Assembly (NCBI GenBank): GCA_040218735.1
Contig: JAVJQW010000042.1
Location: 64,001-128,000, forward strand
Direction: 5' to 3'
Origin: Deltaproteobacteria bacterium
GTDB taxonomy: Bacteria > Myxococcota > Kuafuiibacteriia > Kuafuiibacteriales > Kuafuiibacteriaceae
DNA length: 64,000 nucleotides
Below are positions 6,254 through 24,917 of this stretch, piece after piece. The translations under genes and the position numbers were made by a program. The notes beneath the pieces were generated by a model. That model was not told the DNA's origin and made no database searches. It saw only the letters and a program-made list of their open reading frames with translations. Position 1 is the stretch's first letter. The number at the start of each line of letters is the position of its first letter.

Positions 6254-8383
6254 TCACGGCTCGTGATAGCTCGCGTACGCTTCGACGAACGCCTCGCGCG
6301 ATTGGAAGAACGCCTCGAGATCGGCGCCGATGCCCTCGCGCCACCGTCCGGGCTGAACGCCGCCCTCGACGAGCAGGGCCTTCGCGATGATGTCGATCGC
6401 CGCTGCGCTCGACCGCTCGAAGGGGTTCATGTTCGCGCCCCACCAGTGGAGGTTGGCGACGGCGTCGACGAGCGCGCGCGGTGACTCGGCGCCGCGTGCG
6501 TCGGACCACGCGACCTCCGCCTTCTCGAGGATCGCGTCGAACGAAGACGGCGGCGGGTGGCTCCAGCTGGGGCTTCGTCTCTTGCCGTTGCTGAACACGA
6601 GCTCGCCCTCGTGGGTCGTGAGTCGAATGCCGTCCTCCGTCGCGCGCCAGGTCTCCTCACCGAAGACGTCGAGCGACTCGACGCTCGGCGCTTGGTAGCC
6701 CTCGTACTTTCCGGTCATCGGCGTCGAGCTGGTGGCCGTGCGTGGTCGGCCGAACTCCCGCTGGTCCCACACGTCCGTTCGCTCGAGGTCGCGCATGATC
6801 TGGTTGATGGGCAGGGACACGAAGTCGAGCGCGTCCTGAAACGAATGAATTCCACCCACCGCGATGCCCTGCCGCAGCTCGGTCACGAGCTGCGCCGCCG
6901 CGTGTCCGTACGCTTCGTTGGTGCCGACGGTCTCCCATCCAGGGAGCCGCTGGATCAGCGAGGCTTCGAGCGGCACCGGAGCGCCGAGATGACCGTCGAG
7001 GACGGCGCGGTTCGCGGCGTCGACCTCTGCGTCCGAGCGTGTCCCGGGCGTGGGATTCCTCAGGACGTGGAACGGGAGCGGATCGCCGAACTGCGGCTCC
7101 TGCGACCTCCAGAGCACGTCCATCGGCTCGACCCCCGCGGTGACCAGCTCGACGGGGCTCGTCACGAGGCCGCCGATCCCCTCCAGGAGCACCTCACCGG
7201 GCTCCGTGATCGCACCCGTGGACCAGAGCTGTGCGACGGCCTCGCCCGAGGTGTCGACGCCCGTTTGAAACGCGAGGTTCGCCGTCTGCCCGCCGACGCC
7301 CCGACCGAACGGACTGCCGTACCCGATCGTCGCAAACACCGACACGGCGGCGGCTCGCCGTTCCGCAAAGGATTCCACCGACGCCATCAGCTCCGGGTCG
7401 CGCCACGCTTCGATCACCGCCGCCGCGTCGGTGACGTCGACGCCGTGAGCGACGAGTGATTCGCGGAGCGCGAAGCCGTACTCACTGCCGAACGACGCGG
7501 CGCCGGCCGCGATGCGTGCCCCCCACGGGCCGCCGATCCACGCGCCGAGCGCGCCGGCCGCGAACACGTCGGGTTGGCTGGCGACGCTGCTGAAGAACAC
7601 CTGCGACGCGACCTCCACGGCGTCGAGCCCGTCCGCCGTGAGGACGTCGTACGCCTCGCGGATCGTCACGGTGCGCGCGAGGCGATCGAGCAGAGGAGAG
7701 TGCGGAATCTCTGCGGCGGCTTGGTCGGCGCGCGCGGCGTTGGCGATGTTCGTCGGCACGCTCTCGCGCAGTCTATTGAGTAGCTTGGTGCGCCGTTCGG
7801 GATCCATCGCGAAGTACCCGGCGATTTCACCCGGGACGGTTTCGAGCCGTCGCGGCACGCCCTCGCCGGCTTCGATGCGCTCCAGGATCTCCAACACCCG
7901 CGCTTGGCCGCGGGCCCGCGAGTCGAACCAACGTGCTTGGAGGCGGTGCCATCCGCGCACGAGCGGGTGCCACACGTCGCGTTCGAAGACGCCGTGCTCG
8001 GCTTCGAAGTCGTGCTGCGCGACGTGGTCCCGCGCGGCCTGCTCGGCCTCCGGCGCGTCGTCGAGTCGGACGACGTAATCCCCGCGCGTGAGCTCGTCGA
8101 AGGAGACGCTGCCCGCGTCGAAGTGGACGCGGTCGTCGACACCGGTGACCGCGAGGTGGGGGCCGCCCGGCAGGCCGACGTGGACCCGTCCGCCTTCCTC
8201 GAGCGCGAGCCTGAGCACGGCTTCGAGTTGACGCGAGGCGAGCTTCGCAGCCTCGAACCGCAACGGCGGGGGCGTAGGCGTCGGGAGCGGCGCTTCGTAG
8301 GCGTCAGGGCGTTCGGGTTCCGGCTCGTCCGCCTCGGTCGCAGGAAGGCGCGGGAGCAGGGGGGCGGAGCGGTCGACGCGCAT
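6254..8383 (-). CDS. Multidomain protein with a C-terminal AvrB/AvrC-like (Fido-fold) domain
   Basis: C-terminus LHWWGANMNPFERSSAAAIDIIAKALL..GIGADLEAF..REAFVEAY recalls the AvrB-family pattern HW..xPxxRGSAA..GIxPDLEA; central Gly/Ala hydrophobic region; start MRVDRS directly behind a sigma-54 promoter. Confidence 0.7.
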   Translation of the reverse strand: MRVDRSAPLLPRLPATEADEPEPERPDAYEAPLPTPTPPPLRFEAAKLASRQLEAVLRLALEEGGRVHVGLPGGPHLAVTGVDDRVHFDAGSVSFDELTRGDYVVRLDDAPEAEQAARDHVAQHDFEAEHGVFERDVWHPLVRGWHRLQARWFDSRARGQARVLEILERIEAGEGVPRRLETVPGEIAGYFAMDPERRTKLLNRLRESVPTNIANAARADQAAAEIPHSPLLDRLARTVTIREAYDVLTADGLDAVEVASQVFFSSVASQPDVFAAGALGAWIGGPWGARIAAGAASFGSEYGFALRESLVAHGVDVTDAAAVIEAWRDPELMASVESFAERRAAAVSVFATIGYGSPFGRGVGGQTANLAFQTGVDTSGEAVAQLWSTGAITEPGEVLLEGIGGLVTSPVELVTAGVEPMDVLWRSQEPQFGDPLPFHVLRNPTPGTRSDAEVDAANRAVLDGHLGAPVPLEASLIQRLPGWETVGTNEAYGHAAAQLVTELRQGIAVGGIHSFQDALDFVSLPINQIMRDLERTDVWDQREFGRPRTATSSTPMTGKYEGYQAPSVESLDVFGEETWRATEDGIRLTTHEGELVFSNGKRRSPSWSHPPPSSFDAILEKAEVAWSDARGAESPRALVDAVANLHWWGANMNPFERSSAAAIDIIAKALLVEGGVQPGRWREGIGADLEAFFQSREAFVEAYASYHEP

Positions 8384-12040: not shown

Positions 12041-12337
12041 TCACGCTCCTTCGGCCGCGTCTTCGATCTGATCCTCGAGATCGATCAGCCGTCGCTCGAG
12101 CTCGTTGAGCGCGTGCAGCGTGCGCTCTTGGTCGTGTTTGGTCGGCAGGCCCATCTGACCCCACCACAGGCGAAGCGCCTGGTCCGAGGCGGCCTTCCCC
12201 TTCATCATCGTGGTCAGCATCTTCCCGGCCGGCTCCAGCACCAGCGGGCTCTCCAGCCAGACCTGCATCAGGTCCGACGTCGCCTTCTCCCAGACGTTGA
12301 AGCTCTTCTTGAACTGCTCCCAAGGCATCGTGCTCAT
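12041..12337 (-). CDS. Short PhaE-like PHA synthase partner subunit
   Basis: C-terminal GLPTKHDQERTLHALNELERRL resembles the PhaE LPTR..ELER box; GGAG RBS; PHA gene context. Confidence 0.7.
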   Translation of the reverse strand: MSTMPWEQFKKSFNVWEKATSDLMQVWLESPLVLEPAGKMLTTMMKGKAASDQALRLWWGQMGLPTKHDQERTLHALNELERRLIDLEDQIEDAAEGA

Positions 12338-12366
12338 CCTCTCGGCTCCCTCCGGCGACACTTTGT

Positions 12367-12378
12367 TGCGCCGCACAA
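12367..12378. promoter_or_regulatory. PhaR-binding box
   Basis: TGCGCCGCACAA fits the TGC-N3-GCA PhaR-type operator; lies between the divergent phaE-like gene and phaR. Confidence 0.7.
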
Positions 12379-12479
12379 TATCGATGAGGGCCAACCTAGG
12401 CATCAAGCCGCCGCGTCGTCAACCGTCTTACTGCGCCGCCGCAATTCCTTCCTGGACCCCCGCGCTCGGGTGCGGCACC

Positions 12480-13091
12480 ATGGCGGCGGTGCAGCAACCC
12501 AAGGGCATCGTCGTCATCAAGAAATACAGTAATCGGCGGCTCTACGACACGGGCGAAAGTCGGTACGTGACGCTCGACGAGCTGGCGGAGAAGATCCGCA
12601 GCGGGTTCGACGTCCGCGTCGTCGACGCGAAGTCCAACGCCGACCTCACCCAGCCCACGCTCGCCCAGATCATCCTCGAGAGCCGCCGCGCGGCGCGTCT
12701 CCTCCCTTCGTCGCTCTTGCTGCAGCTGATTCGCATGGACGACGACACCCTCGCCGAATTCTTCGGAAACTGGCTCTCCTGGGCCCTCGAGGTGTACCGC
12801 TTCGGTCGTCAGGGGGCGCAGGCCATCGCGCCGATCAACCCGTTCGCGACGCTCCCGTTCACGGCGACCAACGCCATCGCGCGGATGTTCTCGCAGGGCC
12901 AGGCGCCCTGGGGACAGCAGCAATCCGCGCCGCCTCCGCCTCCGCCGTTCACGGAGGAGACCCCTCCGCCGCCCGACGACGAGGGGCAGGAGGCCCCGGC
13001 GGCCGCAGACCAACGCGGCGACGACATCGCGGAGCTGCGTGCCGAGATCGCCGCGCTGAAGGATGCGCTCCTCGCTGGCCGCAAAGATTGA
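12480..13091 (+). CDS. phaR: PHA synthesis repressor
   Basis: IKKYSNRRLYDT..SRYVTLDEL..VVDAKS..DLT..TLAQIILE DNA-binding domain. Confidence 0.92.
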   Translation: MAAVQQPKGIVVIKKYSNRRLYDTGESRYVTLDELAEKIRSGFDVRVVDAKSNADLTQPTLAQIILESRRAARLLPSSLLLQLIRMDDDTLAEFFGNWLSWALEVYRFGRQGAQAIAPINPFATLPFTATNAIARMFSQGQAPWGQQQSAPPPPPPFTEETPPPPDDEGQEAPAAADQRGDDIAELRAEIAALKDALLAGRKD

Positions 13092-13110
13092 CGCGCCACA
13101 GCAAAATTTT

Positions 13111-13122
13111 TGCACCGCACAA
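13111..13122. promoter_or_regulatory. PhaR-binding box
   Basis: TGCACCGCACAA in an A/T-tract context, immediately upstream of the phasin -35. Confidence 0.75.
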
Positions 13123-13130
13123 AAAATCGG

Positions 13131-13159
13131 TTGACGGTCTCCCTTTCGAGCCTTAGTCT
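13131..13159 (+). promoter_or_regulatory. Sigma-70-type promoter of the phasin operon
   Basis: TTGACG-N17-TAGTCT. Confidence 0.65.
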
Positions 13160-13213
13160 GCTCGGCGTAGGACGGCACAGGGTCGTCCAAAAAGGCGAAA
13201 AGGAACCAAACCA

Positions 13214-13504
13214 ATGGCGACGAAACGTACTACGCAGGCGCAGCAAGACGGTGCCGAAAAGGTCGAAGCGGCCGCCGAAGCCCACATCGCGCGGGTGGAG
13301 GCCATGTTCGGTGAGCTCGAGAAGCTCCAGAAGACCAACATCGAGCAGTTCGAGATGGCGGTCGACGAGAGCGCGAAGCTCATGAAGGCCTCCGCCGACT
13401 ACACGGCGAAGATGATGGACGAGTGGCGTCGGGTGGCCCTGACCACGAGCCGGCAGGCGGTCTCGGCCTTCTCCTCGATGTCCACGATCCCCTTCGCGAG
13501 CTGA
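13214..13504 (+). CDS. Phasin-like granule-associated protein
   Basis: 96-aa amphipathic helical protein, AAGGA RBS, PhaR box upstream, followed by phaC. Confidence 0.65.
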   Translation: MATKRTTQAQQDGAEKVEAAAEAHIARVEAMFGELEKLQKTNIEQFEMAVDESAKLMKASADYTAKMMDEWRRVALTTSRQAVSAFSSMSTIPFAS

Positions 13505-13508
13505 ACCG

Positions 13509-14501
13509 ATGAAGATCGCGCCCACGCCAAAGGACGAGATTTTCTCCGAAGGCACGGCGCGGCTGTATCGATTCCGCCGGCCCTCCGATGACGTCTCGGA
13601 GGTGCCGGCGACCCGGTACCCGCTGCTGGTCGTCCCTTCGCTGATCAATCGCTGGTATATCCTCGATCTACTCAGTGGAATGAGCGTCGTCGAAGCCTGC
13701 TCACAACAGCTCGACACCTACTTGCTCGATTGGGGCGTCCCGAACGACGAGGACCGGTACCTCACTTGGAACCACGTACTCAAACGCCTCGCGCGCGCCG
13801 TGCGCCGCGTGAAGCGCGCGACGGGCTCGCCCAAGGTCTCGATCCTCGGGTACTGCATGGGCGGGACGCTGTCGTCGATCTACACGGCGCTCCACCCCGA
13901 TCAGGTGAGCGCGCTCGTGAACCTCGCCGGCCCGATCGACTTTTCGAAGGGCGGGCGGCTGCAGAACATGACGGACCCGCGCTGGTTCGACGTGGATGCG
14001 ATCGTCGCGACGGGTAACCTCGCCGCGCCGCAGATGCAGAGCGGCTTCACGATGCTGCGTCCGCTGCTGTCGATCTCGAAGTGGGTCAACTACCCGGACA
14101 TCGCGTTCGACCCGGCGAAGAAGGAGCACTTCGAGGCGATGGAGCAGTGGGCGAGCGACAACACGCCGTTCCCCGCGGCGGCGTACCGCACGTACATCCA
14201 CGACCTCTATCAGAACAACGCGCTCGTGAACGGCTCGCACCGAGCCCTCGGTCGCGCGGTGGATCTCGCCGAGATCACGTGTCCGGTTCTGTCCATCGTT
14301 GCTTCGAAGGACGGGATCTGTCCGGCCCCGGCGGCGACCGCGCTCAACGACGCGGTGTCCAGCAAACGCACGGACGTGCTGGAGATCCGCGGAGGACACG
14401 TCGGCGCCGTCGTCGGTCCGCGCGCTTCGACCACGCTCTATCCGGGCCTCGTCGACTGGCTCATGAAGAACACCGCGCGCGCACCCGTTGCCCTCGTCTG
14501 A
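13509..14501 (+). CDS. phaC: Class III-type PHA synthase, copy 2
   Basis: VPSLINRWYILDL, LDWG, GYCMGG, Asp (SKDGICP), His (GGHVG). Confidence 0.88.
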   Translation: MKIAPTPKDEIFSEGTARLYRFRRPSDDVSEVPATRYPLLVVPSLINRWYILDLLSGMSVVEACSQQLDTYLLDWGVPNDEDRYLTWNHVLKRLARAVRRVKRATGSPKVSILGYCMGGTLSSIYTALHPDQVSALVNLAGPIDFSKGGRLQNMTDPRWFDVDAIVATGNLAAPQMQSGFTMLRPLLSISKWVNYPDIAFDPAKKEHFEAMEQWASDNTPFPAAAYRTYIHDLYQNNALVNGSHRALGRAVDLAEITCPVLSIVASKDGICPAPAATALNDAVSSKRTDVLEIRGGHVGAVVGPRASTTLYPGLVDWLMKNTARAPVALV

Positions 14502-14525
14502 ACGAGCGTCTAAGAGGGCCGCACC

Positions 14526-16484
14526 ATGCAAGTTGGGGTGATTGGCTCGGGGTCCATCGGACCCGATCTCGCTTACGGATTTGTCTCTGCGATCGCGCGC
14601 CGCCCGGGCGCGAAGGTCTTCCTCGTCGACATTCGACAGGAGGCCCTCGACCAAGGGCTCGCGCGCATCGACAAGTACCTGGCGAAGGCACGCGACAAGG
14701 GGAAGCTCAACGAGAAGGCGGAGGCCGCCGTGCGTGCCGCGCTCGTACCGACGCTCTCGCTCGCAGATCTGAAGGACTGTGAGTACGTGCTCGAAGCGGC
14801 GAGTGAAGACCTCCCGATCAAGAAGAAGATCCTCGCCGACCTCGAAGAGGTCGTGTCGAAGGACTGCCTGATCGGCTTCGCGACGTCCGGCATCCCGCGC
14901 GCGCAGATCGCCGACGCGGCGAAGCACCCGGAGCGTTGTTTCGTGAACCACCCGTTCTACCCGGCGTGGCGTTCGCCGCCGGTCGAGGTCGTGTTGTCGG
15001 GTGACGACGCGCTCGGCGAGCGGATGATGAAGACGCTGAAGACGCTCGGGAAGGTCCCGGTGGTCACGAAGGACATCGAGTGCTTCGCGATCGACGACAT
15101 CTTCTGCAACTACGTCTCCGAGGCGGCGCGCATCGTCGCCGAGGGCGTCGCGACGCCCGCGCAGGTCGACGCGATCGTCAACGACGCGATCGGTGGCGGC
15201 GGTCCGCTCACCGTCATGGATCTCACGCGCGGGAACATGCTCGTCGTGAAGTGTCAGCGCCTCATGCAAAACGCGCCGCACGGGAACGACTGGTTCGCGC
15301 CGCCGAAGATCCTCGAGGAGACCGGCCGCTGGCACGACCGCGAGAACCCGGGCGATCGCAAGTACGACGACACACTCGCGGAGGCGGTCCTCAGCCGCAT
15401 CCTCGCGGTGCTCTTGGCTCGGACGTTCTTCGTCGCCGACGAGGGTGTGTGCTCGCACACCGAGCTGAACTGGATGTCGCGGATGGCGCTCGGGTTCAGC
15501 AAGGGCGTGCTGGAGATCGCGGATCAGGTCGGCGCCGAGAAGGTGCGGGAGCTGTGTGTCGCCTACAAGGCGAACAACCCCGGCTTCACGTTCACGCGGA
15601 GCATCAGCGACGCGACGTTCCCGAAGTACAAGGCAAACGTGCTCGTGGAGCGCGACGGGGACATCGGCACGGTGCGGGTGTTCCGGCCCGAGGTGATGAA
15701 CGCGCTGTCGAGCCGCACGATCGCGGAGATCGACGAGGCCTTCGACGAGCTGCTCGGTGACGACAAGATCAGGGGCGTGGTCTTCACCAGCTCGAACGGC
15801 GCGCTGGCGGGTGCGGACATCCGCGAGCTCGCTGCGCTCCCGACCGCCGAGGCGTGCACGGCGATCTGCATGACGACGCACCCGATCATGCGCAAGTTCG
15901 AGAAGGCCAAGAAACCCGTCGTCGCAGCGCTCGACGGCCCGGTGATGGGTGGCGGCGCGGAGTTCTCGATGGCGTGCCACGGGCGCGTGGTCGGCAAGTC
16001 GCTGATCATGAGCCAGCCCGAGGTGAACCTCGGCATCATCCCCGGCTACGGCGGGACGATGCGTCTGCCGCGGTTGGTGGGCGTCGAGCTCGCGGCGGAG
16101 CTGGTGCGCACGGGTCGCGTCGTGAAGGCGGACGAAGCTGCGCGCATCGGGTGGGCCACCGAGCAGACGGTCGGCGACGTGGAGGTCGCGGCGAAGCGTT
16201 TGATTCGTCGGCACCTCGAAGGCTCCGCGATCGTGGAGCCGGTGTCGGAGGCGCCGATGGAGATCGGTGAGCTGCCGAACGTCGAGCTCGGGCACCTATC
16301 CCGCGCGATCGACGCGGTGATCGTTCACGTCTTGCAAGACGGGTTGACGAAGTCACTCGACGAGGGGCTCGCGGTCGAGGCGGAAGCGTTCGGTCGCTGC
16401 CGCGACATCGAGGACATGCAGATCGGCATGCAGAACTTCATGAAGAACGGGCCGCGCGTGAAGGCTCAGTTCGTTCACCGCTGA
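14526..16484 (+). CDS. 3-hydroxyacyl-CoA dehydrogenase / enoyl-CoA hydratase fusion (dehydrogenase N-terminal)
   Basis: GVIGSGSIG, EAASEDLPIKK, HPFYP; crotonase motifs AGADI, GGGAEF, QPEVNLGIIPGYGG. Confidence 0.9.
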   Translation: MQVGVIGSGSIGPDLAYGFVSAIARRPGAKVFLVDIRQEALDQGLARIDKYLAKARDKGKLNEKAEAAVRAALVPTLSLADLKDCEYVLEAASEDLPIKKKILADLEEVVSKDCLIGFATSGIPRAQIADAAKHPERCFVNHPFYPAWRSPPVEVVLSGDDALGERMMKTLKTLGKVPVVTKDIECFAIDDIFCNYVSEAARIVAEGVATPAQVDAIVNDAIGGGGPLTVMDLTRGNMLVVKCQRLMQNAPHGNDWFAPPKILEETGRWHDRENPGDRKYDDTLAEAVLSRILAVLLARTFFVADEGVCSHTELNWMSRMALGFSKGVLEIADQVGAEKVRELCVAYKANNPGFTFTRSISDATFPKYKANVLVERDGDIGTVRVFRPEVMNALSSRTIAEIDEAFDELLGDDKIRGVVFTSSNGALAGADIRELAALPTAEACTAICMTTHPIMRKFEKAKKPVVAALDGPVMGGGAEFSMACHGRVVGKSLIMSQPEVNLGIIPGYGGTMRLPRLVGVELAAELVRTGRVVKADEAARIGWATEQTVGDVEVAAKRLIRRHLEGSAIVEPVSEAPMEIGELPNVELGHLSRAIDAVIVHVLQDGLTKSLDEGLAVEAEAFGRCRDIEDMQIGMQNFMKNGPRVKAQFVHR

Positions 16485-16487
16485 GCC

Positions 16488-19085
16488 TCACGGGCCGAAC
16501 ATCCGGAACGCTGCCCAGTCCGAGTCCGGCGCTGCCTCGCGTGTCTGCTGTTGCGCAGCGCGGAATGCGGCGTCGAACGTCTCCTCTTCCTTCAAAGCTC
16601 GGTAGAACACACGCGCGAAGCGAACGGCGTCATCATCGGCGACCGGACGTACCGCTGCGACCACGCGCTGCGCTCCGCGGACCACGAACGCCTGCGCGGC
16701 GCCGAGCGTGAGGGTGGTCGCGAGTGGCTCGGAGCGCGCGAGATCACACCCCGCGAGGACGATGGTCTCGGGGACGCGCGGGAGGTGGAGGATGTCGCTC
16801 GTGGTGAGCTGGAGGTGCTCGGAGATCTTCAGCGCGCTCTCGATGCCGTCGGGGCCGGCGGACCTTCCGTGGCCGGCGAAGTGGAAGTGTTCGGCCGTGG
16901 CGAGCGCGTCGTAGAGCGCCGACGGCGTGGCACCGGCGGATGAAGTCTCGAGCGCGGCACGTACTGCGGCCTCCTCGGCGTCGGCGTTGCGGAGGGTGCC
17001 GGTGCGGTCGCGGGCGATGAGCGCGCGACGCGGTGTGGGTGCGTTGCCGGCGACGGCGAGGTCCAAGGCGTAGCGCACCGACTTCGTCTCGCCGAGGGGG
17101 TGCCCGTCCAGGTCGAGGGCGTGGAAATCCACATCCTCGAGCGCCCCGGGCGCGACGAACACGACGTGTGCGTTCGCGCGGAGCAGCGGCGCGAACCGCT
17201 TCACGATGTCCGCGGGCGTCTGGACCCGCTCGATTCGCGTCTGTTCTGCAGTGAGCGCAAAGGCCGCCCAGGTCTCCGTGTCGAGCGGGTGCAGCACGAG
17301 CATCACCTCGTCCGTCGCCGGACGGCGCGGCTCGGTGTTCGTCGCCGTGATCAGCTTCGCGTCGAGAGTGTCCCGGAGTGACGCGCGGATCGAAGCCATC
17401 TGGTCGTGCAGCGCGCTCGACTCCTCCTCCGCGAGTCGCCACGACGAACCCGATTCCCCCTGCAAGCTGCGTTGACGCCGCTGATAGTCCGCGAGTAGAG
17501 CCTCCCACCGCGATCGGCTCTCGGAGTCCAGGGCCGCGAGCCGCGAAGCCCGCACCAGGTTGTCGACGTTGCGCCGCAGGCTCCGCCGCGCGACCAGCGC
17601 CGCCTCCTCCTTTCGCTCGAGACGAAGCAGTACGTTCAAGAGTCGAAGTGTCCCGGGGCTCCGCGCGTCGGCGAAGCTCGCGCGTCCCTCGCCGAACGGC
17701 ACGAGCGCGAGCTGACGATCCACGCTGCGCTCGGCCGCGCGGTACGCCTCGGCAGCTTCCTCCCAGCGCTCGGTGATCTCCAGCGCTCGCCCGCGCCCGA
17801 GCGCGGCGCGCCAGCGCGCCTGTTCGTCGGCGCGCGCGACGCCGAACGCATCGAGCCTCGCGAACGCCGAGAGCGCCTCGTCGTGTCGACCGCGCAGGCG
17901 CGCGATGTGCCCGCGAAGCTCCATCCGCCACGCCCGCGTGCGCGCGTCGTCGCCCGTGAGCTCGGCCTCGGCGCGGAGCAGCTCGGCCTCGGCCTCGTCG
18001 GCGCGGCGGAGCTCGACGTGGAGGAACGCCAGGTTGAGACGGATGAACGGAGCGACCTGGGAGCCGCAAGCCGGCGCGTCCTCGAGTGCGGCCGCGAACA
18101 GCTGCTCGATGGCGGAGACTTCCAAGAGCGGGCGCTGAGCCTCGGCGGCGATCATCGCGGTCCAGGCACGTTGGTTGGCGAACATGGCGCGCTGGCAGGG
18201 GGCGTCTTCGGGGAGCGTACGGTTCAGCAATGACGCGGCGTCTTCGAAGCGCCCGACGCTACGAAGGAGGCGCGCCTTCTGTTCGACGGCAAGGAGAAGG
18301 ACGTCGTGAAGCCCAAGGCGTCGCAAGCGAGTGATGGACCGGTCGAAGTACTGGAGCGCGAGGCGTACGTTGAATGTCTCCAACGCCAGCATGCCCTCGT
18401 AGTACGGCCAGAGCGCCTCATGTGTCGGGCTGTACTTCGTGCAGCTCTGGCCTCCGTCCAGCGCCGCATTCGCCATTCGCGTGCGCAGGCCCTCCTTGGC
18501 GAAGTACGCCCAGGCTAAACGAACATCGCAGGCCTCCGACAGCCAGCCCTGCATCTCGAGATCGACCACGGCGCTCTCGAAGATGTGCGCTGCGGCGCCG
18601 ATCCCACGGGTTGCCGCCACGATTCGAGCCCGTACTCCCACGGCCCTCTCCCTGAGCTTAGGAGGGAGCGCGTCGATCTCGGCGAGCGCCCGTTCTGGAG
18701 CCGAACGTCGGAGGTGGTCGATGCGTTCGAGCTCAGTGGGTTCGAGCTGACCGATCTCGAGGGCCCACAACTGTGAGCTCTTCACCTCGAGCCTCCTCGA
18801 ACTCACTCCGACGAGGACCGTGTACTGCGCACCACCGGCGAGCCTCGTCGACGGAGCCTCCACCGGCTCGCCATTCAACGAAATCGTGACGGACGCGCCG
18901 AGCTCGTCGGGCACCCAGAGCGTGAGCGTACTGGTCCGAGACAGCAGACAAACCGGTCCCGAACGCACGGACTGACAGCCTGTCCACGCGATGTCAGCCG
19001 GTGGCGCCGTCTCGCGAAGCGCAAGCCACGACGCCCCCGCGGTGAGCACGCACGCGCCGACGAGCGCGATGACTGCGCGCTTCAT
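16488..19085 (-). CDS. Exported TPR-CHAT (caspase-like) protease
   Basis: N-terminal signal/TM, TPR-like helices, catalytic HFAGHG and VLAGC, C-terminal WAAF. Confidence 0.88.
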   Translation of the reverse strand: MKRAVIALVGACVLTAGASWLALRETAPPADIAWTGCQSVRSGPVCLLSRTSTLTLWVPDELGASVTISLNGEPVEAPSTRLAGGAQYTVLVGVSSRRLEVKSSQLWALEIGQLEPTELERIDHLRRSAPERALAEIDALPPKLRERAVGVRARIVAATRGIGAAAHIFESAVVDLEMQGWLSEACDVRLAWAYFAKEGLRTRMANAALDGGQSCTKYSPTHEALWPYYEGMLALETFNVRLALQYFDRSITRLRRLGLHDVLLLAVEQKARLLRSVGRFEDAASLLNRTLPEDAPCQRAMFANQRAWTAMIAAEAQRPLLEVSAIEQLFAAALEDAPACGSQVAPFIRLNLAFLHVELRRADEAEAELLRAEAELTGDDARTRAWRMELRGHIARLRGRHDEALSAFARLDAFGVARADEQARWRAALGRGRALEITERWEEAAEAYRAAERSVDRQLALVPFGEGRASFADARSPGTLRLLNVLLRLERKEEAALVARRSLRRNVDNLVRASRLAALDSESRSRWEALLADYQRRQRSLQGESGSSWRLAEEESSALHDQMASIRASLRDTLDAKLITATNTEPRRPATDEVMLVLHPLDTETWAAFALTAEQTRIERVQTPADIVKRFAPLLRANAHVVFVAPGALEDVDFHALDLDGHPLGETKSVRYALDLAVAGNAPTPRRALIARDRTGTLRNADAEEAAVRAALETSSAGATPSALYDALATAEHFHFAGHGRSAGPDGIESALKISEHLQLTTSDILHLPRVPETIVLAGCDLARSEPLATTLTLGAAQAFVVRGAQRVVAAVRPVADDDAVRFARVFYRALKEEETFDAAFRAAQQQTREAAPDSDWAAFRMFGP

Positions 19086-19168
19086 GCGCGCGTGCCGAGC
19101 GCATCGAAGCTCTGGTCGCGGGGCACGACCGGAGGGTCGGGCGCGCCATGCGTGGAGTCAACTCGAGG

Positions 19169-21085
19169 TCAGGGCAAGCGGATGTCACCCAGCGGCTCGC
19201 GGATGGACTCACCGCGGTCGGTCGTGCCGGTGAGGTGCGCTTCGCGAATGTCAGCGCCAGGGTGCGGCAGCCCCGTGACCTCGTACCGTTTCCCGCCCAT
19301 GAGCGTCGCACCCGCCTCCCAGAGGTTGTATCGGAAATCACCAGACGCCGTGCGCAGAAGGACCGATGGCGTGTGGACCTCGGTCACGACGGCAGCATCG
19401 ATCTCGAGATAGACGGTCACCGTCGGCCCTTCGCGGTAGAAGCATTGGGGACACACCGTCGGATCCGGCTGCGGCACTACGTCCGGATGCGCCCACCCCG
19501 AGTACCCCTGCTTGTCCGGGCAGGGCGCCTCCGCCGGCTGCTCCATCCCCACCGGCCGAAACAGCACCGCGTCACACGCCCCCGCGCCCGTCGCGACCAA
19601 CGGCGGCATCGCGACCACGTAGTCCGGCGCCGGCAGGTAACTCGTCAGCACGTCGGGTCGCGCGTCCTCGTACGCACCCCGCGGCGCGCACGTCACCATC
19701 GGGCACTGCTCGAGCGGGCCGTCCGGCGTCATGCACACCGACTCCACCGCGCCGCACACCGAGACACGATGCACCATCGCGCACGTGCCCACGCACATCC
19801 CCGGGCTCGCGAAGTAGTTCAGGTCCACGCCGCTCGCGTAGACCGCGTCGGCGATCTCGACCGCCGGAACGTCCGGAACGAACGCCCACGCGAGCGCCGC
19901 CGCGGTCGACGCCACGCCCGCCGACACCGACGTCCCCGTCAGCATCCCCAACGCGGAGCCGCCCAGCGTGTGCGCCGTCCCGCGGAACCCCGGCGCCACC
20001 AACCGCGGCGTGCTCGCCGCGCGCCCGTTCGGAAGCGGCCAGTCCCGACCGTCCACACCGCCGACCGCCTCGACCAAACCGCCCGCCGCCGAGTACCCCG
20101 GCGCCGGGCCCTCCAGCTGATCACAACGGCCCACCGAAGGCCGCGCCTCGTCGTTCCACGCCGCTGGCAGGATCGCGCCGGTGTGATGCGAAGTCCCGCC
20201 GGACCAGTTTCCCGCCGCCGCGACCACCAGCGCGCCGTGGCACACCGCCTCTTCGATCGCGGTGTGCACCGCGCGCACCGGTGTCTCGCCGCCGGGCGCG
20301 CTCCCGAACGCCGGCAACCACCCGAGGCTCAGGTTGATCACCAAACGGTCCGCAGGGCTCGCGCGATCCGCGAGGTAGCGCTGCACCGCGCGGTGCGTCG
20401 CCGCCGCGAGATCACTTTGGTACCCGAAGTCCCCACCCGCAGCGGACTTCTTCCAGGTCGTCCCGTCGAAGCGCCACGGCAACGCCAGCTCGTGGTGCAC
20501 GTGCACATTGCAACCTGGCTTGCTCGGTCCATCCGGACACCCGACGCTCCGAGCGATGCGCCCCAGCACGTAGCCGTGTTCGCTGTTGCCCGGCATCGCT
20601 TCGCCGTCACCGACCGGCGACGGCGGCGAGCTGTCGACGATGCCCACCCACGTTCGTGAAGGCGCCGTCGCGACTGGGACGCCCGGATCGATCTGCCCGA
20701 GGAACGCGGAGTAGTGCGCGTTCCACATCGGCGTCGCGGCCGGGGTCACGACGAGGCAATCGGGATCCGCGGCACCGCCCGCGGGCACGAGCGAAGCCAC
20801 CGCCGCCGCCGAAGGCTCGCCGCTCCCCAGATACTCGTAACGACAGAACGCCATCAGCGCCGAGGCGGTCGCACCCGGAAACACGCGCGACTCCGCCCAA
20901 CCGCTCTTCGAGTCACACGCACCCCCCGGGTCGAACACGATGGTCCGCCGCGAAGAACAGAGCGCCCCCGGCGCCGGGAAGGGATCGAACACGATGCGCG
21001 CGGACTTCGTCGCCACCGGCTCGCCGGGGCTGCACCCGCCCATCGCGCCGACAACGAGGATCGCGGAGGTCAGATTTCGCATCAC
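19169..21085 (-). CDS. S8 (subtilisin-like) serine peptidase, Cys-rich lipoprotein
   Basis: Lipobox MGGC; triad GIVDS / EHG / GTS; INLSLG, AAAGN. Confidence 0.88.
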   Translation of the reverse strand: MMRNLTSAILVVGAMGGCSPGEPVATKSARIVFDPFPAPGALCSSRRTIVFDPGGACDSKSGWAESRVFPGATASALMAFCRYEYLGSGEPSAAAVASLVPAGGAADPDCLVVTPAATPMWNAHYSAFLGQIDPGVPVATAPSRTWVGIVDSSPPSPVGDGEAMPGNSEHGYVLGRIARSVGCPDGPSKPGCNVHVHHELALPWRFDGTTWKKSAAGGDFGYQSDLAAATHRAVQRYLADRASPADRLVINLSLGWLPAFGSAPGGETPVRAVHTAIEEAVCHGALVVAAAGNWSGGTSHHTGAILPAAWNDEARPSVGRCDQLEGPAPGYSAAGGLVEAVGGVDGRDWPLPNGRAASTPRLVAPGFRGTAHTLGGSALGMLTGTSVSAGVASTAAALAWAFVPDVPAVEIADAVYASGVDLNYFASPGMCVGTCAMVHRVSVCGAVESVCMTPDGPLEQCPMVTCAPRGAYEDARPDVLTSYLPAPDYVVAMPPLVATGAGACDAVLFRPVGMEQPAEAPCPDKQGYSGWAHPDVVPQPDPTVCPQCFYREGPTVTVYLEIDAAVVTEVHTPSVLLRTASGDFRYNLWEAGATLMGGKRYEVTGLPHPGADIREAHLTGTTDRGESIREPLGDIRLP

Positions 21086-21094
21086 AGCGTTCGA

Positions 21095-21121
21095 TACAAG
21101 GTGCCCTCCACGAATCTAACG
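21095..21121 (-). promoter_or_regulatory. Putative ECF promoter (copy before the S8 gene)
   Basis: CGTTAGAT-N13-CTTGTA. Confidence 0.65.
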
Positions 21122-21139
21122 TGACGCGATCGATCTTTT

Positions 21140-21823
21140 TCACTCGCGCGTTTGCACCGGCTGAACGACCCACCGCCACGCCGGATCGCGGCCTTGCACC
21201 TGCGCAACGTTGGGCGCCATCCCATCGCCGACCGCCGCCACGATCTGCGCAGCACCCCACGAACCGACCGTTCCGCTCGCCCGTACCGCGCCGGAAGCAT
21301 CGCGTTCCAAAGTCACGTCGACCGGCGTCACTGCGTCGCCCTTCACGACGAACAGCCACGCGTCGACCTCGCGGCCCACGCGCGTCGCGGGTCGTAACAG
21401 CATCGTGAACCGATCGCCGACGCGCGCCTCGATCGCGGCGTCCTCGGAGCGATACTCTACCGCGACCTGCACCCGCCCCGAGTAGTCCGGGAGCGGCGTG
21501 GGCTGCCCGAGCAGCAGGAACCCCGCGACCAAAGAAGCCGCGAGCGCCCCCGCGCCGCCGATCCACAACGCGCGCGTCGGCCGGATCGTGTGCACCTTCA
21601 TCGCCTGCTCGGCGCCGTCGGCGAGCTGCTCGAAGAAGGCGTCCGCCTTCGGCTCGCACAGCTCGACCACCCGCATCAGCGCCGGGTCTTGCTCTGCCGC
21701 GCGCATCAGCTCGGCGCGCTCGGGCTCCGAGAGCTCTCCGGCTGCGAGTCGGGCGAGCTGATCCACCTGTCGCTCGTCGCGAGCGACCTCGACGATCGCG
21801 TCCATCAACTCCGTCTCCTTCAT
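21140..21823 (-). CDS. Putative membrane-anchored anti-sigma factor
   Basis: Start overlaps the ECF stop (ATGA); helical N-domain, single TM ALWIGGAGALAASLVAGFLLL, beta-rich C-domain. Confidence 0.7.
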   Translation of the reverse strand: MKETELMDAIVEVARDERQVDQLARLAAGELSEPERAELMRAAEQDPALMRVVELCEPKADAFFEQLADGAEQAMKVHTIRPTRALWIGGAGALAASLVAGFLLLGQPTPLPDYSGRVQVAVEYRSEDAAIEARVGDRFTMLLRPATRVGREVDAWLFVVKGDAVTPVDVTLERDASGAVRASGTVGSWGAAQIVAAVGDGMAPNVAQVQGRDPAWRWVVQPVQTRE

Positions 21824-22479
21824 CGCTCCGACGCCTCCGGCATCTTGCGCTCATCTTCGCTGACAAGCTCGTCGAACAGCTCACGTGCCCGGTTCGCCAC
21901 GCGGTTTCGCCACGCGTACAGCGCCGACGGCTTCATCTCGAACGACGCCGCGACCTCCTGAAGCGGCACCTCCTCCAGGTACACCTGGTCGAACAACTCG
22001 CGTCCGCGCGGCGTGAGCCACACATCCAAACGCAGGCACAACTCCCGGAGCAGATCGCGGTACACCACGCGGCGCTCGCCGTCGGTCTGTACCGCGTACA
22101 CCTCGACGTCCTCCGTGGGGCGCTCCTTCTCGTTGCGCGGCGTGCGGCGTGCGCTCACCAGGACGTTCGAAACCTCCCGCTCCGCCACCATCCCGGCGAA
22201 GCTCTCCAGCGACAACCCACGCGACGGATCCCACGCGCGGAGCGCTCGCCCGTCGTTGGTGAAGAGCCGCACGAAGACCTCCTGCGTCAGGTCGTCCACG
22301 TCGGCGCGGAGCTCTCGCGAACGTCCCGAGCTCCGTTTCGCGAGCGCCCGCGCGACCCGGACCTGAATCGTCGGGGTCAGCCGACGCGCCAGCTCGACGA
22401 GCGCGCGACGATCCTTGGAGAGCGCCCGTTCGACGAGCTCGCGCTCGGCGTCCGGAGTCTGGGGCGCGACGTCAGCCAC
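21820..22479 (-). CDS. ECF sigma-70 family factor
   Basis: Region 2 DVDDLTQEVFVRL..LRAWDP; region 4 EVPLQEVAASFEMKPSALYAWRNR; GTG 22479 preferred because the 22503 start lies inside the promoter motif. Confidence 0.9.
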   Translation of the reverse strand: MADVAPQTPDAERELVERALSKDRRALVELARRLTPTIQVRVARALAKRSSGRSRELRADVDDLTQEVFVRLFTNDGRALRAWDPSRGLSLESFAGMVAEREVSNVLVSARRTPRNEKERPTEDVEVYAVQTDGERRVVYRDLLRELCLRLDVWLTPRGRELFDQVYLEEVPLQEVAASFEMKPSALYAWRNRVANRARELFDELVSEDERKMPEASER

Positions 22480-22491
22480 TTCGACATGACC

Positions 22492-22518
22492 TACAACGAA
22501 CACGCCCCAGATCTCACG
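22492..22518 (-). promoter_or_regulatory. Putative ECF autoregulatory promoter
   Basis: CGTGAGAT-N13-GTTGTA. Confidence 0.65.
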
Positions 22519-22524
22519 CGCGAC

Positions 22525-24756
22525 CTACAAACAAGTCCCCGGGCCGCTCGGCGCGCCCGCCGGTGCCGGCGTCACGGCCGTGCCTGGCTCGAACAGCGTC
22601 GCGCTCGCGTCGCAGACGCCGAATCCGATGTTCTCCTGCACCCACGCCTCGCCGAACACTTCGCCGCAGATCGCTACGACGCCCGCGAGCTCGTTGCCGA
22701 ACGCCGGGTCGTTCTCGACCACCCGGGCGATGACGTTCCGCGTCGCGTGGTTCTGCTCCTGCGAGACCGGCTGGCAAAGGAAGTCGAGGAACGCATCGAT
22801 GCACTGCGCTTCGGCTTCGTTCGAAGCGAACGTCTCGAGCGCCTCCGAGCGATCCTCACACGCGCCTTCGATCTCCATGTCGCCGTACACGCAGATCTCT
22901 GCGCTGGGCGTCGAACCCGGATCGAACGACGGCTCACACGGCGGCGGCGTCTCGGGCAGCTCGGGGACCTCACCCTCGATGCAGGACTGCACCGTGCTCG
23001 GGAAGCTCGCGAACTCCGGGTGCCCGGGGAAGTGCGAGAGCACGTCGGGTTGGCTCGTCACGTCGCCGCTGCGCGCGCTCGTCCCGATGCGCAATCGATT
23101 CGCCTCGGGCCAAGGGTCGTCTTCGTAGCTCGCGAGCGACGTGGTGTAGTCGTAGATGACGAAGTCCCACGAGGCGAACAGCACCTTGGCGTGCACCCAC
23201 GCTTTCGACGCGAAGCTCAGGTCCGCCTCCATGTGCGGCGTTACGACAAGACCGGTGGTCGGCTCGAAGTCGGGCCGCAACGAAGCGCGCTCCGCGTCGC
23301 GGACGTCGTGCACCATCTGGCCGGTGCCCTCCAGGCCGCCCTGGATGTTGAACTGAAGTGCGAGGAGTCCGACGTCGATGCCCGCGCTCCCGAGCAGCGC
23401 GCCCGACATCGTCATTCCGGCTCGCGACGTCCGGCCGTAGTCGGCGTCCTGGATGGCCCGGGTGAGGAACGGATCGTTCGGCGCGAGGAAGTCGCCCACG
23501 CCGTTCGCGTTCACGAAGATCGGCGAAGTTCCGGGCACCGTGCTCGCGAGGCTCCACGTTCCATCGTAGTACCCGGCGGTTCCGTAGGTCTCCCACGTGT
23601 AGGGCGGCGTTCCGGCGCGCGGGGGCGAGAACGTCGGCGGCGGCGAAGCGAGCACGGCGTCGGTGATGGGTTTGCCGTCGCCCGCGAACATCTCGAGCCC
23701 GAGCTGGAGCTGCGCCTTGAACACGAAGATGTCGAAGAGCGGGATCGGCGGGAAGGTCCCCTCCGCGTTCCACTGAGAAGAAACGACGTCCTCCCCGAAC
23801 GTCACCGTGTGGTGCGTCTTGGCGTAGATCGGCTCTTCGCTGTTCACCTCGAGCTGCTCGGAGGCGTTCTCAACCTCGGTGTCACCGACCACGAAAGTCA
23901 CGGGCGTACGAACCTCCGGGAAGCTCGGGATGCCGAGCCCGCGAATCGGCGAAAAGCGCGTACCGAGCGACAGCGGAACGGCGAACGCCTGCGCGCCGTC
24001 GACGTTGGCCGTGTCGAGGAACCGCTCGGGGGGGTGCACCACGGCGGTCGGCTCGATCACCATGAAGTCGATGCGCTGCCCGAAGATGTCGAGCCCGCCG
24101 GCGGAGCGTGAGCCCATCGTCACGCCGCTGCCCGGCTGGTTCATGACGGCTTCACGCGCCGCGCAGTACAGACGTGCACCGCGCATCCGCAGCTCGTCGA
24201 AGTGCTCGGGGTCGGGGTAGGGCGTCGTCGTGAGCGGGCAGTTCGGATACTGCGGACAAGTCTCCGTGTCCGACGACTGCCAGCGCGCCTGCACGGGCTC
24301 GTACCCCGCGTGAGCCGTCGTTCGCGTGACACTCGCCGAGCCGCCGAGGCCCGAGAACATTGCGGAGATCGCGGCGGTGCTGATCTCCGACTCACGGTTC
24401 TCGGCCATCGTCTGCGCCGACGAGAGCAGCGGATCGAGCGCCGGCTGCGCCGAGAACGGATCCGAAGTCACCGCCGCTCGCCACGTCGCGGCGTTCGACG
24501 AGGGGTTGTTGTTGAGGTCGAAGCCGTTGGTGTAGACCCCGCCGGGAACGTCCGGCGGGAACGCGCCGCCGCCCAGGACGAGGTTCGACAACGGTGGGAT
24601 CGTCCCGGACGTGCTCGGGCCTGCGGGTGTATTGAATAGATTGACGACGCGATCCCTTGCGTCGGCGACGACGTCTTCGGCGGCGCTACATCCTGCGAGG
24701 ACGAACAGGGTCGTGGCCGCGCCGAACGGGCGCAGCCGCTTTGAGAAAGCACTCAT
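22525..24756 (-). CDS. Large hypothetical lipoprotein, beta-rich core and Cys-rich C-terminus
   Basis: MSAFSKRLRPFGAATTLFVLAGC lipobox; AAGGAG RBS. Confidence 0.82.
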   Translation of the reverse strand: MSAFSKRLRPFGAATTLFVLAGCSAAEDVVADARDRVVNLFNTPAGPSTSGTIPPLSNLVLGGGAFPPDVPGGVYTNGFDLNNNPSSNAATWRAAVTSDPFSAQPALDPLLSSAQTMAENRESEISTAAISAMFSGLGGSASVTRTTAHAGYEPVQARWQSSDTETCPQYPNCPLTTTPYPDPEHFDELRMRGARLYCAAREAVMNQPGSGVTMGSRSAGGLDIFGQRIDFMVIEPTAVVHPPERFLDTANVDGAQAFAVPLSLGTRFSPIRGLGIPSFPEVRTPVTFVVGDTEVENASEQLEVNSEEPIYAKTHHTVTFGEDVVSSQWNAEGTFPPIPLFDIFVFKAQLQLGLEMFAGDGKPITDAVLASPPPTFSPPRAGTPPYTWETYGTAGYYDGTWSLASTVPGTSPIFVNANGVGDFLAPNDPFLTRAIQDADYGRTSRAGMTMSGALLGSAGIDVGLLALQFNIQGGLEGTGQMVHDVRDAERASLRPDFEPTTGLVVTPHMEADLSFASKAWVHAKVLFASWDFVIYDYTTSLASYEDDPWPEANRLRIGTSARSGDVTSQPDVLSHFPGHPEFASFPSTVQSCIEGEVPELPETPPPCEPSFDPGSTPSAEICVYGDMEIEGACEDRSEALETFASNEAEAQCIDAFLDFLCQPVSQEQNHATRNVIARVVENDPAFGNELAGVVAICGEVFGEAWVQENIGFGVCDASATLFEPGTAVTPAPAGAPSGPGTCL

Positions 24757-24804
24757 GATTTCAGGGCTCCTTGGGAGGGGTGGTTGGTTGGGTTCGTCGA
24801 GGTC

Positions 24805-24831
24805 TACAAGGCGGCGCGCTCGGACCTCACG
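24805..24831 (-). promoter_or_regulatory. Putative ECF promoter (copy before the lipoprotein gene)
   Basis: CGTGAGGT-N13-CTTGTA. Confidence 0.65.
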
Positions 24832-24917
24832 TGACCGATCCGACCTGGGACCCATGGCCCAGGTGTCTGGTCCGCCATTCTTGCCGGTGCATCCTGTCGC
24901 CTCCTACCGTGGTCTGC

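Follow-up and report, generated by a model that had tools for sequence, protein, structure and literature searches.

The minus strand of a 64,000-nucleotide stretch of a soil-type Myxococcota genome (assembly GCA_040218735.1, contig JAVJQW010000042.1; the whole 64-kb stretch is called the window below) carries, at positions 16488-24855, five co-oriented open reading frames (ORFs) of the window's ORF list. They encode a lipoprotein, a sigma factor of the extracytoplasmic function (ECF) type, a small anti-sigma-like protein with a single transmembrane (TM) helix that we call ASF, a subtilase of family S8, and an exported protein that combines tetratricopeptide repeats (TPR) with a caspase-like CHAT protease domain. 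A sequence-only reading of this DNA had described all five as one module. The five co-oriented ORFs are indeed present, but the unit that is conserved comprises four genes (sigma, ASF, CHAT and S8), and the lipoprotein gene is a local add-on. The gene order of this four-gene cassette in the window is ECF > ASF > S8 > CHAT, and the features of the locus are the following.

24804..24830, minus strand: promoter-like motif GTGAGGTC-N13-TTGTAG, 5' of the lipoprotein gene (exact pattern match)
22525..24756, minus strand: lipoprotein of 743 amino acids (aa) with lipobox LAGC and a Cys-rich C-terminal part (ORF; no family match)
22491..22517, minus strand: promoter-like motif GTGAGATC-N13-TTGTAG at the 5' end of the sigma gene (exact pattern match)
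21820..22503, minus strand: ECF sigma factor, 227 aa as listed (Sigma70_r2, TIGR02937)
21140..21823, minus strand: ASF, single-pass anti-sigma-like protein, 227 aa (alignment, profile, AlphaFold model)
21094..21120, minus strand: weaker promoter-like motif GTTAGATT-N13-TTGTAT, 5' of the S8 gene (relaxed post hoc pattern)
19169..21085, minus strand: S8 subtilase, 638 aa, with a lipobox-like MGGC (PF00082; catalytic columns)
16488..19085, minus strand: exported TPR-CHAT protein, 865 aa (PF12770; alignment)

Proteins of the cassette

The sigma factor matched Sigma70_r2 at 28.2 bits and TIGR02937 at 54.3 bits, the latter being the only NCBIfam model over its cut-off, and the alignment of its family (A2, 20 sequences) contains conserved WDPxRG and QEVF motifs. 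The promoter-like motif at 22491-22517 overlaps the listed start of the gene, and an in-frame GTG at 22479 lies 11 nt downstream of the motif; the protein probably starts at this GTG, which gives 219 aa. A single-sequence search of the PDB with the sigma factor returned designed repeat proteins only.

The start of ASF overlaps the sigma stop by 4 nt, an arrangement of translational coupling. No Pfam family scored over its cut-off with ASF, which has one hydrophobic span at residues about 85-103. The TM helix (about 85-106) is followed just outside the membrane by an LPxY motif, and an immunoglobulin (Ig)-like periplasmic domain occupies residues 109-227. Twelve members of the family from the same genome align over their full length (alignment A1) and share this layout: a helical cytoplasmic part of ~80 aa, the TM helix, LPxY and a beta-rich domain of ~120 aa. 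In an AlphaFold model built from the 12-row alignment (mean predicted local distance difference test score 82.7), five helices at the N-terminus precede a helix at 90-105, and residues 114-226 form a beta-sandwich. Its fold is of a generic Ig/filamin-like kind (Z about 9); a fold search with the ectodomain pointed to no specific family and barely probed the helical N-domain.

An HxxxCxxC motif together with a Pfam zf-HC2 match occurs in 4 of the 12 paralogues (best E 5.7e-7). The window protein has AEQDPALMR at this position and is a non-zinc version, aligning with the zinc-motif members in the same helices. While a single-sequence PDB search with ASF gave one chance-level match only, the best solved matches of the ASF profile were RslA (3hug_B, E 0.0014) and ChrR (E 0.03), a likeness that is marginal. 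These two proteins serve as reference zinc anti-sigma domains in the paper on DdvA (PMC11506125). On the grounds of the overlap with the sigma gene, the zf-HC2 paralogues and the profile matches to RslA and ChrR, we class ASF as a predicted anti-sigma factor.

The 49 ASF family members from all fetched loci share R125, P145 and G178 without exception; 46 of them have P112 and 47 have Y114. In 43 of the 49 a Gly or Ser comes directly after R125, a residue that sits in a loop (121-130) placed with low confidence by the model. The ASF profile, searched against 1.84 billion cluster representatives, found 4849 at E<=1e-3, 2270 at E<=1e-10 and 317 at E<=1e-30, and nearly all of the best 150 matches are 213-290 aa long. 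Among 34 sampled matches, zf-HC2 was found in 3 and no Pfam family in 30. ASF thus belongs to a large family without a Pfam model, with 2270 cluster representatives at E<=1e-10.

In the CHAT protein, PF12770 scored 84.5 bits over residues 637-864 and TPR_12 29.9 bits, slightly below the cut-off of 30.1. The protein consists of a signal, an N-domain with two conserved Cys (GCxxxxxGxxC), the TPR region and the CHAT domain. Single-sequence PDB searching gave no match for it, so that profiles were needed. The S8 protein matched PF00082 at 37.7 bits (cut-off 21.8). Both proteases retain their catalytic residues, as the sequence-only reading had it. H735, G738, H739 and C780 are invariant in the 27 aligned CHAT family members (alignment A3), the window protein keeping the H739/C780 dyad, and in all 41 S8 sequences D151, H170, N293 (the oxyanion Asn) and S386 are invariant.

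Both proteases are predicted to be exported. The N-terminus of CHAT (MKR followed by AVIALVGAC) is lipobox-like, that of S8 has MGGC after a hydrophobic stretch, and in all 14 long CHAT paralogues of the genome the first residues form a short stretch, basic and hydrophobic, that in many cases closes with a lipobox-like Cys. No anti-sigma domain or cytoplasmic partner domain occurs in any of the 14. These export signals were judged by eye and with a crude regular expression for lipoboxes, which 12 of 27 CHAT and 12 of 41 S8 family members satisfied, the remainder being unclassified. PADLOC had no match among the 8 locus and flank proteins, and the 64-kb window contains no CRISPR-like array. The export-type N-termini and the missing array agree with the earlier description of an envelope unit, independent of CRISPR, that combines a sigma factor, an anti-sigma factor and proteases.

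Occurrence in this and other genomes

The cassette was followed in other genomes through two sets of loci. Sixteen loci, from genomes other than the window's own but of its family and phylum, made up the first set, found via CHAT. All four genes were present in 10 of them; the other six were short or cut contigs with CHAT, with or without S8, and one had a partial ASF at the contig end. The second set was found via sigma alone in species-representative genomes and comprised 65 loci, of which 29 were strong matches (profile E<=1e-54). This set is less circular than the first, although 3 of its 29 strong loci duplicate first-set loci. ASF was present in 27 of the 29 strong loci, CHAT in 25 and S8 in 17, and missing partners mostly fell at contig ends. 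No ASF, CHAT or S8 was found near any of the 36 weaker sigma matches, which come mainly from Stellaceae and other Alphaproteobacteria. The strong loci belong to Myxococcota (Polyangiales, Haliangium, Sandaracinus, Nannocystaceae) and Acidobacteriota (Thermoanaerobaculia). Elsewhere the genes most often stand in the order ECF > ASF > CHAT > S8. The neighbourhood survey called for by the sequence-only reading therefore bore out the content of the unit, which is kept, but not its order, which is permuted.

The pairwise distances of ECF, ASF and CHAT correlate over 44 modules (r 0.62-0.71, a level reached by 0 of 2000 permutations) and likewise within 11 modules of the window's own genome (r 0.78-0.90). 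The cassettes were thus inherited and duplicated as units, the correlation alone not being proof of co-evolution. In two records of Haliangium metagenome-assembled genomes (MAGs), ASF and CHAT lie in one stop-free frame (L051:9492-13085 and L059:9585-13151). The L051 frame reads in order through a cytoplasmic part, a TM helix, LPLY, an Ig-like part, a GC...C domain, the TPR region, HYAGHG and LAGCET; a single-sequence PDB search with the fused protein gave no match. Searching longer proteins with the ASF alignment, a weak search, found no fused forms. The two natural fusions, together with the match of the CHAT profile to DdvA given below, lead us to read the arrangement in the window as a split version of a DdvA-type anti-sigma factor.

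When the five window proteins were used as tblastn queries against the 11.6-Mb assembly, CHAT gave 14 long and 2 short matches, the sigma factor 13, S8 5, ASF 2 and the lipoprotein only itself. CHAT lies within 3.5 kb of 12 of the 13 sigma matches. A profile built from the small membrane proteins adjoining the sigma genes placed an ASF homologue at 14 sites of the genome, and sigma, ASF and CHAT occur together in 11 modules. At least ten ECF/ASF/CHAT modules exist beyond the one in the window, on contigs C42, C50, C58, C54 (two), C64, C17 (two), C61 and C59; the further paralogous modules are loci L013, L015-L016, L018-L020 and L022-L025.

These modules vary in their parts. Four of them (L019, L022, L024 and L025) have the order CHAT > ASF > ~770-aa protein > ECF. 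Pfam (in three) and the S8 profile (in all four) identify the ~770-aa protein as a divergent S8; four paralogous modules with the order CHAT > ASF > S8 > ECF have a zinc-finger anti-sigma factor. In L020 a trypsin-like (S1) protease occupies the S8 slot, and in L013 a single CHAT gene is flanked by two sigma/ASF pairs. Large exported proteins follow other modules, among them FG-GAP, SpvB/TcdB-like and MauG-like di-haem proteins. They include an FG-GAP protein with SpvB and TcdB-mid Pfam matches (L019:1305-4544, contig C54), an FG-GAP protein with an alpha/beta hydrolase part (L016:12950-15100, contig C58) and a protein with a MauG-like di-haem peroxidase domain (L018:10344-13739, contig C54). 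These three may be module-specific outputs.

The lipoprotein does not share this distribution. Its ORF is listed at 22525-24855, and the likely start is the ATG at 24756 behind an AAGGAG ribosome-binding site, giving the 743-aa protein that begins MSAFSKRL and continues to LAGC. Pfam, NCBIfam and PADLOC contain no family for it, and a protein atlas search gave no usable match. A word-indexed search of 5.8 billion proteins found 10 homologues at E<=1e-3, with nine invariant Cys in the C-terminal third. Members of this rare family have a scattered occurrence, in Polyangiaceae, Sorangium, Kofleriaceae, Haliangiales, Acidobacteriota and a Planctomycetales MAG. Not one of 13 homologous lipoprotein loci elsewhere has an ECF, ASF or S8 gene of the cassette type within 9 kb, and a CHAT fragment stands at the edge of one. 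The lipoprotein, counted as a module member by the sequence-only reading, is therefore not part of the cassette.

The cassette is flanked by a FadB-like gene, genes related to polyhydroxyalkanoate (PHA) and an amidase gene. The region adjoining it (12210-16484) encodes a PhaR-like regulator (PHB_acc_N), an alpha/beta hydrolase with a PhaC N-terminal match and a fused 3-hydroxyacyl-CoA dehydrogenase/enoyl-CoA hydratase; these genes of ordinary metabolism converge on the cassette. GC-rich tandem repeats with periods of 15, 42 and 57 at 45935-46153, unrelated to the cassette, are probably a low-complexity coding repeat.

A promoter-like motif at the sigma, S8 and lipoprotein genes

The promoter motif that the sequence-only reading ascribed to the locus was located as GTGAGRTC-N13-TTGTAG. 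This pattern has exactly two copies in the 64-kb window, at 22491-22517 and 24804-24830 on the minus strand, and allowing up to 2 mismatches it has four matches where 0.24 are expected. The last base of the copy at 24804-24830 lies 47 nt before the lipoprotein ATG. In the 11.6-Mb genome the exact pattern occurs four times, the other two copies being antisense inside long frames with a high G+C content at third codon positions. A third site, GTTAGATT-N13-TTGTAT, ends 8 nt before the GTG start of S8. A pattern relaxed to include it matches three times in the window, all in the cassette locus, against 0.00 expected, and five times in the genome, but it is post hoc and its statistics are therefore flattered. 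A scan for sigma-70-type promoters found none, and two terminator-like sites were found, fewer than the shuffle mean.

Related genomes have the motif at matching places. The form GTGAGATC-N13-TTGTAGG is found 5' of the sigma gene both in the window and, as an exact copy, in the closest orthologous locus (L027), and copies with 2 mismatches lie 5' of the ECF gene in L038 and L029. At the S8 gene, a 2-mismatch copy ends 8 nt before the GTG in L027, and a copy in L038 ends 8 nt before the ATG. This shared motif-to-S8 geometry in two other genomes is independent support, at the level of sequence, for the site in the window. It is peculiar, as a motif, to the window's module and the closest orthologues of that module. 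No copy lies 5' of CHAT in the window, and the L027 CHAT has none within 2 mismatches whereas the L027 S8 has one. L027 also has, between CHAT and S8, a small secreted ORF (6593-7390, minus strand; internal start MPRLSAL...) with its own motif copy 5'; it has no counterpart in the window.

In three genomes the motif stands 8-11 nt before a start codon (window 22479-22517 and 21085-21120; L027:6524-6559; L038:8897-8934). Because it ends so close to the GTG or ATG of sigma and S8, transcripts of the leaderless type are suggested, and the sigma and S8 mRNAs are probably leaderless or nearly so. The proposal that the sigma factor drives its own gene and that of the lipoprotein gains support from the motif that the two share, and the lipoprotein is probably a target gene of the sigma factor and the best candidate for a specific output in this genome.

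The sequence-only reading had suggested that the subtilase might trigger CHAT, a role that the present data do not favour. S8 is missing from 12 of the 29 strong sigma loci and can be replaced by another protease class, as by the trypsin-like enzyme in one module, which makes it an unlikely trigger. As a sigma-type motif stands directly 5' of the S8 start here and in two other genomes, S8 is more likely an output or feedback element.

Relation to DdvA/DdvS and the proposed mechanism

Among known systems, DdvA/DdvS of Myxococcus xanthus (PMC11506125, PMC6061681; PDB 8ROT) comes closest. As described there, DdvA joins a cytoplasmic zinc anti-sigma domain, a single TM helix and a periplasmic TPR-CHAT part of ~900 residues in one polypeptide; without the TPR-CHAT part it becomes a substrate of RseP and is lost in an RseP-dependent manner (PMC11506125). 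Its CHAT active site lacks the three-helix motif, and the protein assembles as an arrow-shaped dimer. For the site-1 step, the authors propose a signal-induced self-cleavage by CHAT in trans (PMC11506125). The pair controls an island of CRISPR and the antiphage system CBASS, and only a subset of DdvA-like pairs is found near defence systems (PMC11506125). The search for DdvA homologues reported in that paper demanded the anti-sigma and TPR-CHAT parts in one protein (PMC11506125), a requirement by which split forms would be missed. Among the papers searched, none was found on a split sigma/anti-sigma/TPR-CHAT system.

The best PDB match of our CHAT profile was 8rot_B (E 1.8e-10, CHAT domain only), from the DdvA-DdvS complex 8ROT (PMC11506125, Science Advances 2024). 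With DdvA/DdvS the cassette shares an ECF sigma factor, a single-pass anti-sigma factor and a TPR-CHAT part with a His-Cys dyad, the phylum Myxococcota, several pairs per genome, and a further exported peptidase, which is of the C25 type in the ddvS operon (PMC11506125) and of family S8 in the window. Two relatives of the window family (L051 and L059) are fused in the manner of DdvA. Unlike in DdvA, the anti-sigma factor and TPR-CHAT of the window are separate genes, TPR-CHAT having its own signal or lipobox; an Ig-like domain follows the TM helix; the CHCC zinc site is missing; the likeness in sequence is confined to the CHAT domain; and neither CBASS nor CRISPR lies at the cassette (PADLOC 0/8; no array in the window). 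The window sigma factor is not close to DdvS.

The same combination of genes in the same order as in the window has been catalogued in Actinobacteria as group ECF54, where the ECF gene is followed by a protein at +1, a subtilase at +2 and TPR-CHAT at +3 (PMC7826278, Casas-Pastor et al. 2021). The +1 protein is described as 'carboxypeptidase regulatory-like', with a domain of the beta-sandwich type (PMC7826278), and proteolytic control has been proposed (PMC7826278, PMC8999054). The group's description gives it as 100% actinobacterial and without an anti-sigma factor, with the promoter elements GTATCAG at -35 and CTCC at -10 (PMC7826278). By contrast, the window cassette belongs to Myxococcota and its relatives to Acidobacteriota, its +1 protein is the anti-sigma factor, and its motif is GTGAGRTC-N13-TTGTAG; the cassette is set apart from ECF54 on these described features. 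The combination of ECF, subtilase and TPR-CHAT is thus already known. New here are the size of the paralogue set, the zinc/non-zinc continuum and size of the ASF family, and the natural fusions; also new is the three-site promoter motif that places S8 and the local lipoprotein in the regulon.

In E. coli, RseA undergoes regulated intramembrane proteolysis by DegS at site 1 and then by RseP at site 2. A periplasmic site-1 cut of a single-pass anti-sigma factor followed by an M50 site-2 step is likewise proposed for the cassette; the site-1 candidate would differ in being a cassette-encoded caspase-like Cys protease and not a PDZ serine protease, and the ectodomain in being Ig-like. M50 site-2 proteases are encoded in the genome, a finding that is nearly universal in the control and not discriminating.

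We consider it fairly probable that the four genes form an envelope signalling cassette that is a split form of DdvA/DdvS, in which CHAT is proposed to cut ASF and so to free the sigma factor. Gene content, conservation, anti-sigma kinship, fusion, dyad and motif sites are the observations given above, to which the model adds, by inference, the cue, promoters that are active, and every step of binding and cleavage. In the resting state, the N-domain of ASF would hold the sigma factor at the membrane while the TPR-CHAT lipoprotein sits on the Ig-like ectodomain. A periplasmic and probably proteinaceous cue, sensed by the TPR part, would render the His-Cys dyad active, and the dyad would clip the ectodomain, a candidate site being the exposed loop with the invariant Arg125. 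A site-2 protease of the RseP type and cytoplasmic proteases would then remove the rest of ASF. The sigma factor so freed would transcribe from three promoters of the GTGAGRTC-N13-TTGTAG type, those of its own operon, of S8 and of the upstream orphan lipoprotein, S8 and the lipoprotein being the outputs. A more specific version is decidedly more tentative. It would have the TPR-CHAT lipoprotein act in trans as a caspase-like site-1 protease at Arg125-Gly/Ser, and the ~11 co-diverged modules of this genome serve as an array of insulated proteolytic sensing channels. Every channel would have a small regulon of its own, and its TPR part would be tuned to a different protein cue from outside the cell (prey, phage or kin).

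Several points weigh against the proposed mechanism. Cleavage by the CHAT domain of DdvA is itself a hypothesis whose validation needs the identity of the signal (PMC11506125); the experiments on DdvA demonstrate shielding only so far, and the data are consistent with TPR-CHAT merely shielding the anti-sigma factor. As a cut site, Arg125 would draw on its invariance and a low-confidence loop of the model only. The window ASF is without the zinc motif, which occurs in only 5 of the 49 family members, and the likeness of the ASF profile to solved anti-sigma domains counts only together with other evidence. The sigma profile misses DdvS among its 7 PDB matches at E<=1e-3, which are led by sigma-ShbA, a member of ECF40, and the sigma factor thus falls in another ECF group. 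L070, which has full flanks, and the weaker relatives L072 and L073 have a sigma gene without partners. The motif pattern was derived from the same sequences, its relaxed form having been written after the third site was seen, and a k-mer count upstream of 19 sigma genes, taken from paralogous and orthologous modules, revealed no common motif.

The main uncertainty concerns the role of CHAT, as site-1 protease or as shield. If it were a shield, which we regard as rather unlikely, TPR-CHAT would be a co-anti-sigma factor that sits on the Ig-like ectodomain and leaves on the cue, with the site-1 cut made by S8 (by the trypsin-like protease in one paralogue) and positive feedback arising because S8 is induced by the sigma factor. 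RseB, which protects RseA, offers a parallel. The point shown for DdvA is indeed that removal of TPR-CHAT exposes the anti-sigma factor to RseP, proteolysis being proposed only (PMC11506125), and a second exported protease recurs (S8 in 17 of 29 loci, S1 in L020, a C25-type enzyme in the ddvS operon as described there), with S8 having its own sigma-type motif. The invariance of the CHAT His and Cys in all 27 sequences nonetheless favours catalysis, and the 12 of 29 loci that lack S8 keep ECF, ASF and mostly CHAT, so that S8 is not a general site-1 protease. Furthermore, a site-1 protease made only after induction cannot start the signal. It is also possible, though doubtful, that sigma and anti-sigma sense the cue through the Ig-like ectodomain alone and that both proteases are regulated products for feeding, predation or envelope remodelling. 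The sigma-type motif at S8 and the lipoprotein, the position of CHAT downstream of S8 in the same direction, and the differing presumed outputs of other modules (FG-GAP, MauG-like, SpvB/TcdB-like) would fit this. The natural fusion of ASF to TPR-CHAT in two loci would not, nor would the presence of CHAT in 25 of the 29 sigma-found loci with a divergence that tracks sigma and ASF, the L027 CHAT without a motif copy within 2 mismatches beside an S8 that has one, or the precedent of DdvA as published.

The analogy with type III-E CRISPR loci drawn in the sequence-only reading did not stand up. It would make the cassette a defence module in which TPR-CHAT, like Csx29, cuts a Csx30-like anti-sigma factor to free an RpoE-like sigma factor during phage attack, and we regard it as highly improbable. 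In both systems a TPR-CHAT protease is linked to a sigma factor and an inhibitor, and DdvA/DdvS itself controls a CBASS-CRISPR island, as already cited. The craspase, however, is cytoplasmic, activated by RNA-guided Cas7-11 and encoded with CRISPR (PMC11506125), whereas the N-termini of the window CHAT and its 14 long paralogues are of the export type, and these proteins are free of cytoplasmic partner domains. PADLOC matched none of the 8 proteins, the window contains no CRISPR-like array, and the flanks are genes of fatty-acid and PHA metabolism and an amidase. The CHAT profile reached 1.8e-10 with DdvA but only about 2e-3 with the other 'CHAT domain protein' chains of the PDB, which we take to be those of Csx29. 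Taken as a whole, the earlier interpretation is partly supported.

DdvA/DdvS is, to our knowledge, the only system with a periplasmic caspase-like domain on an anti-sigma factor to have been studied so far. DdvA offers no way to test its key step, self-cleavage by CHAT, since protease and presumed substrate form a single chain and the signal would have to be known. In the split form they are separate proteins, open to mixing, mutation and titration one by one, and the question of cleavage can thereby be tested directly. ASF-family proteins are probably annotated as hypothetical, and as the family lies outside Pfam, many ECF sigma factors classed without an anti-sigma factor may have one. If the more specific version of the model is true, thousands of unannotated metagenomic proteins of the ASF family would mark a widespread and unrecognised mode of transmembrane signalling.

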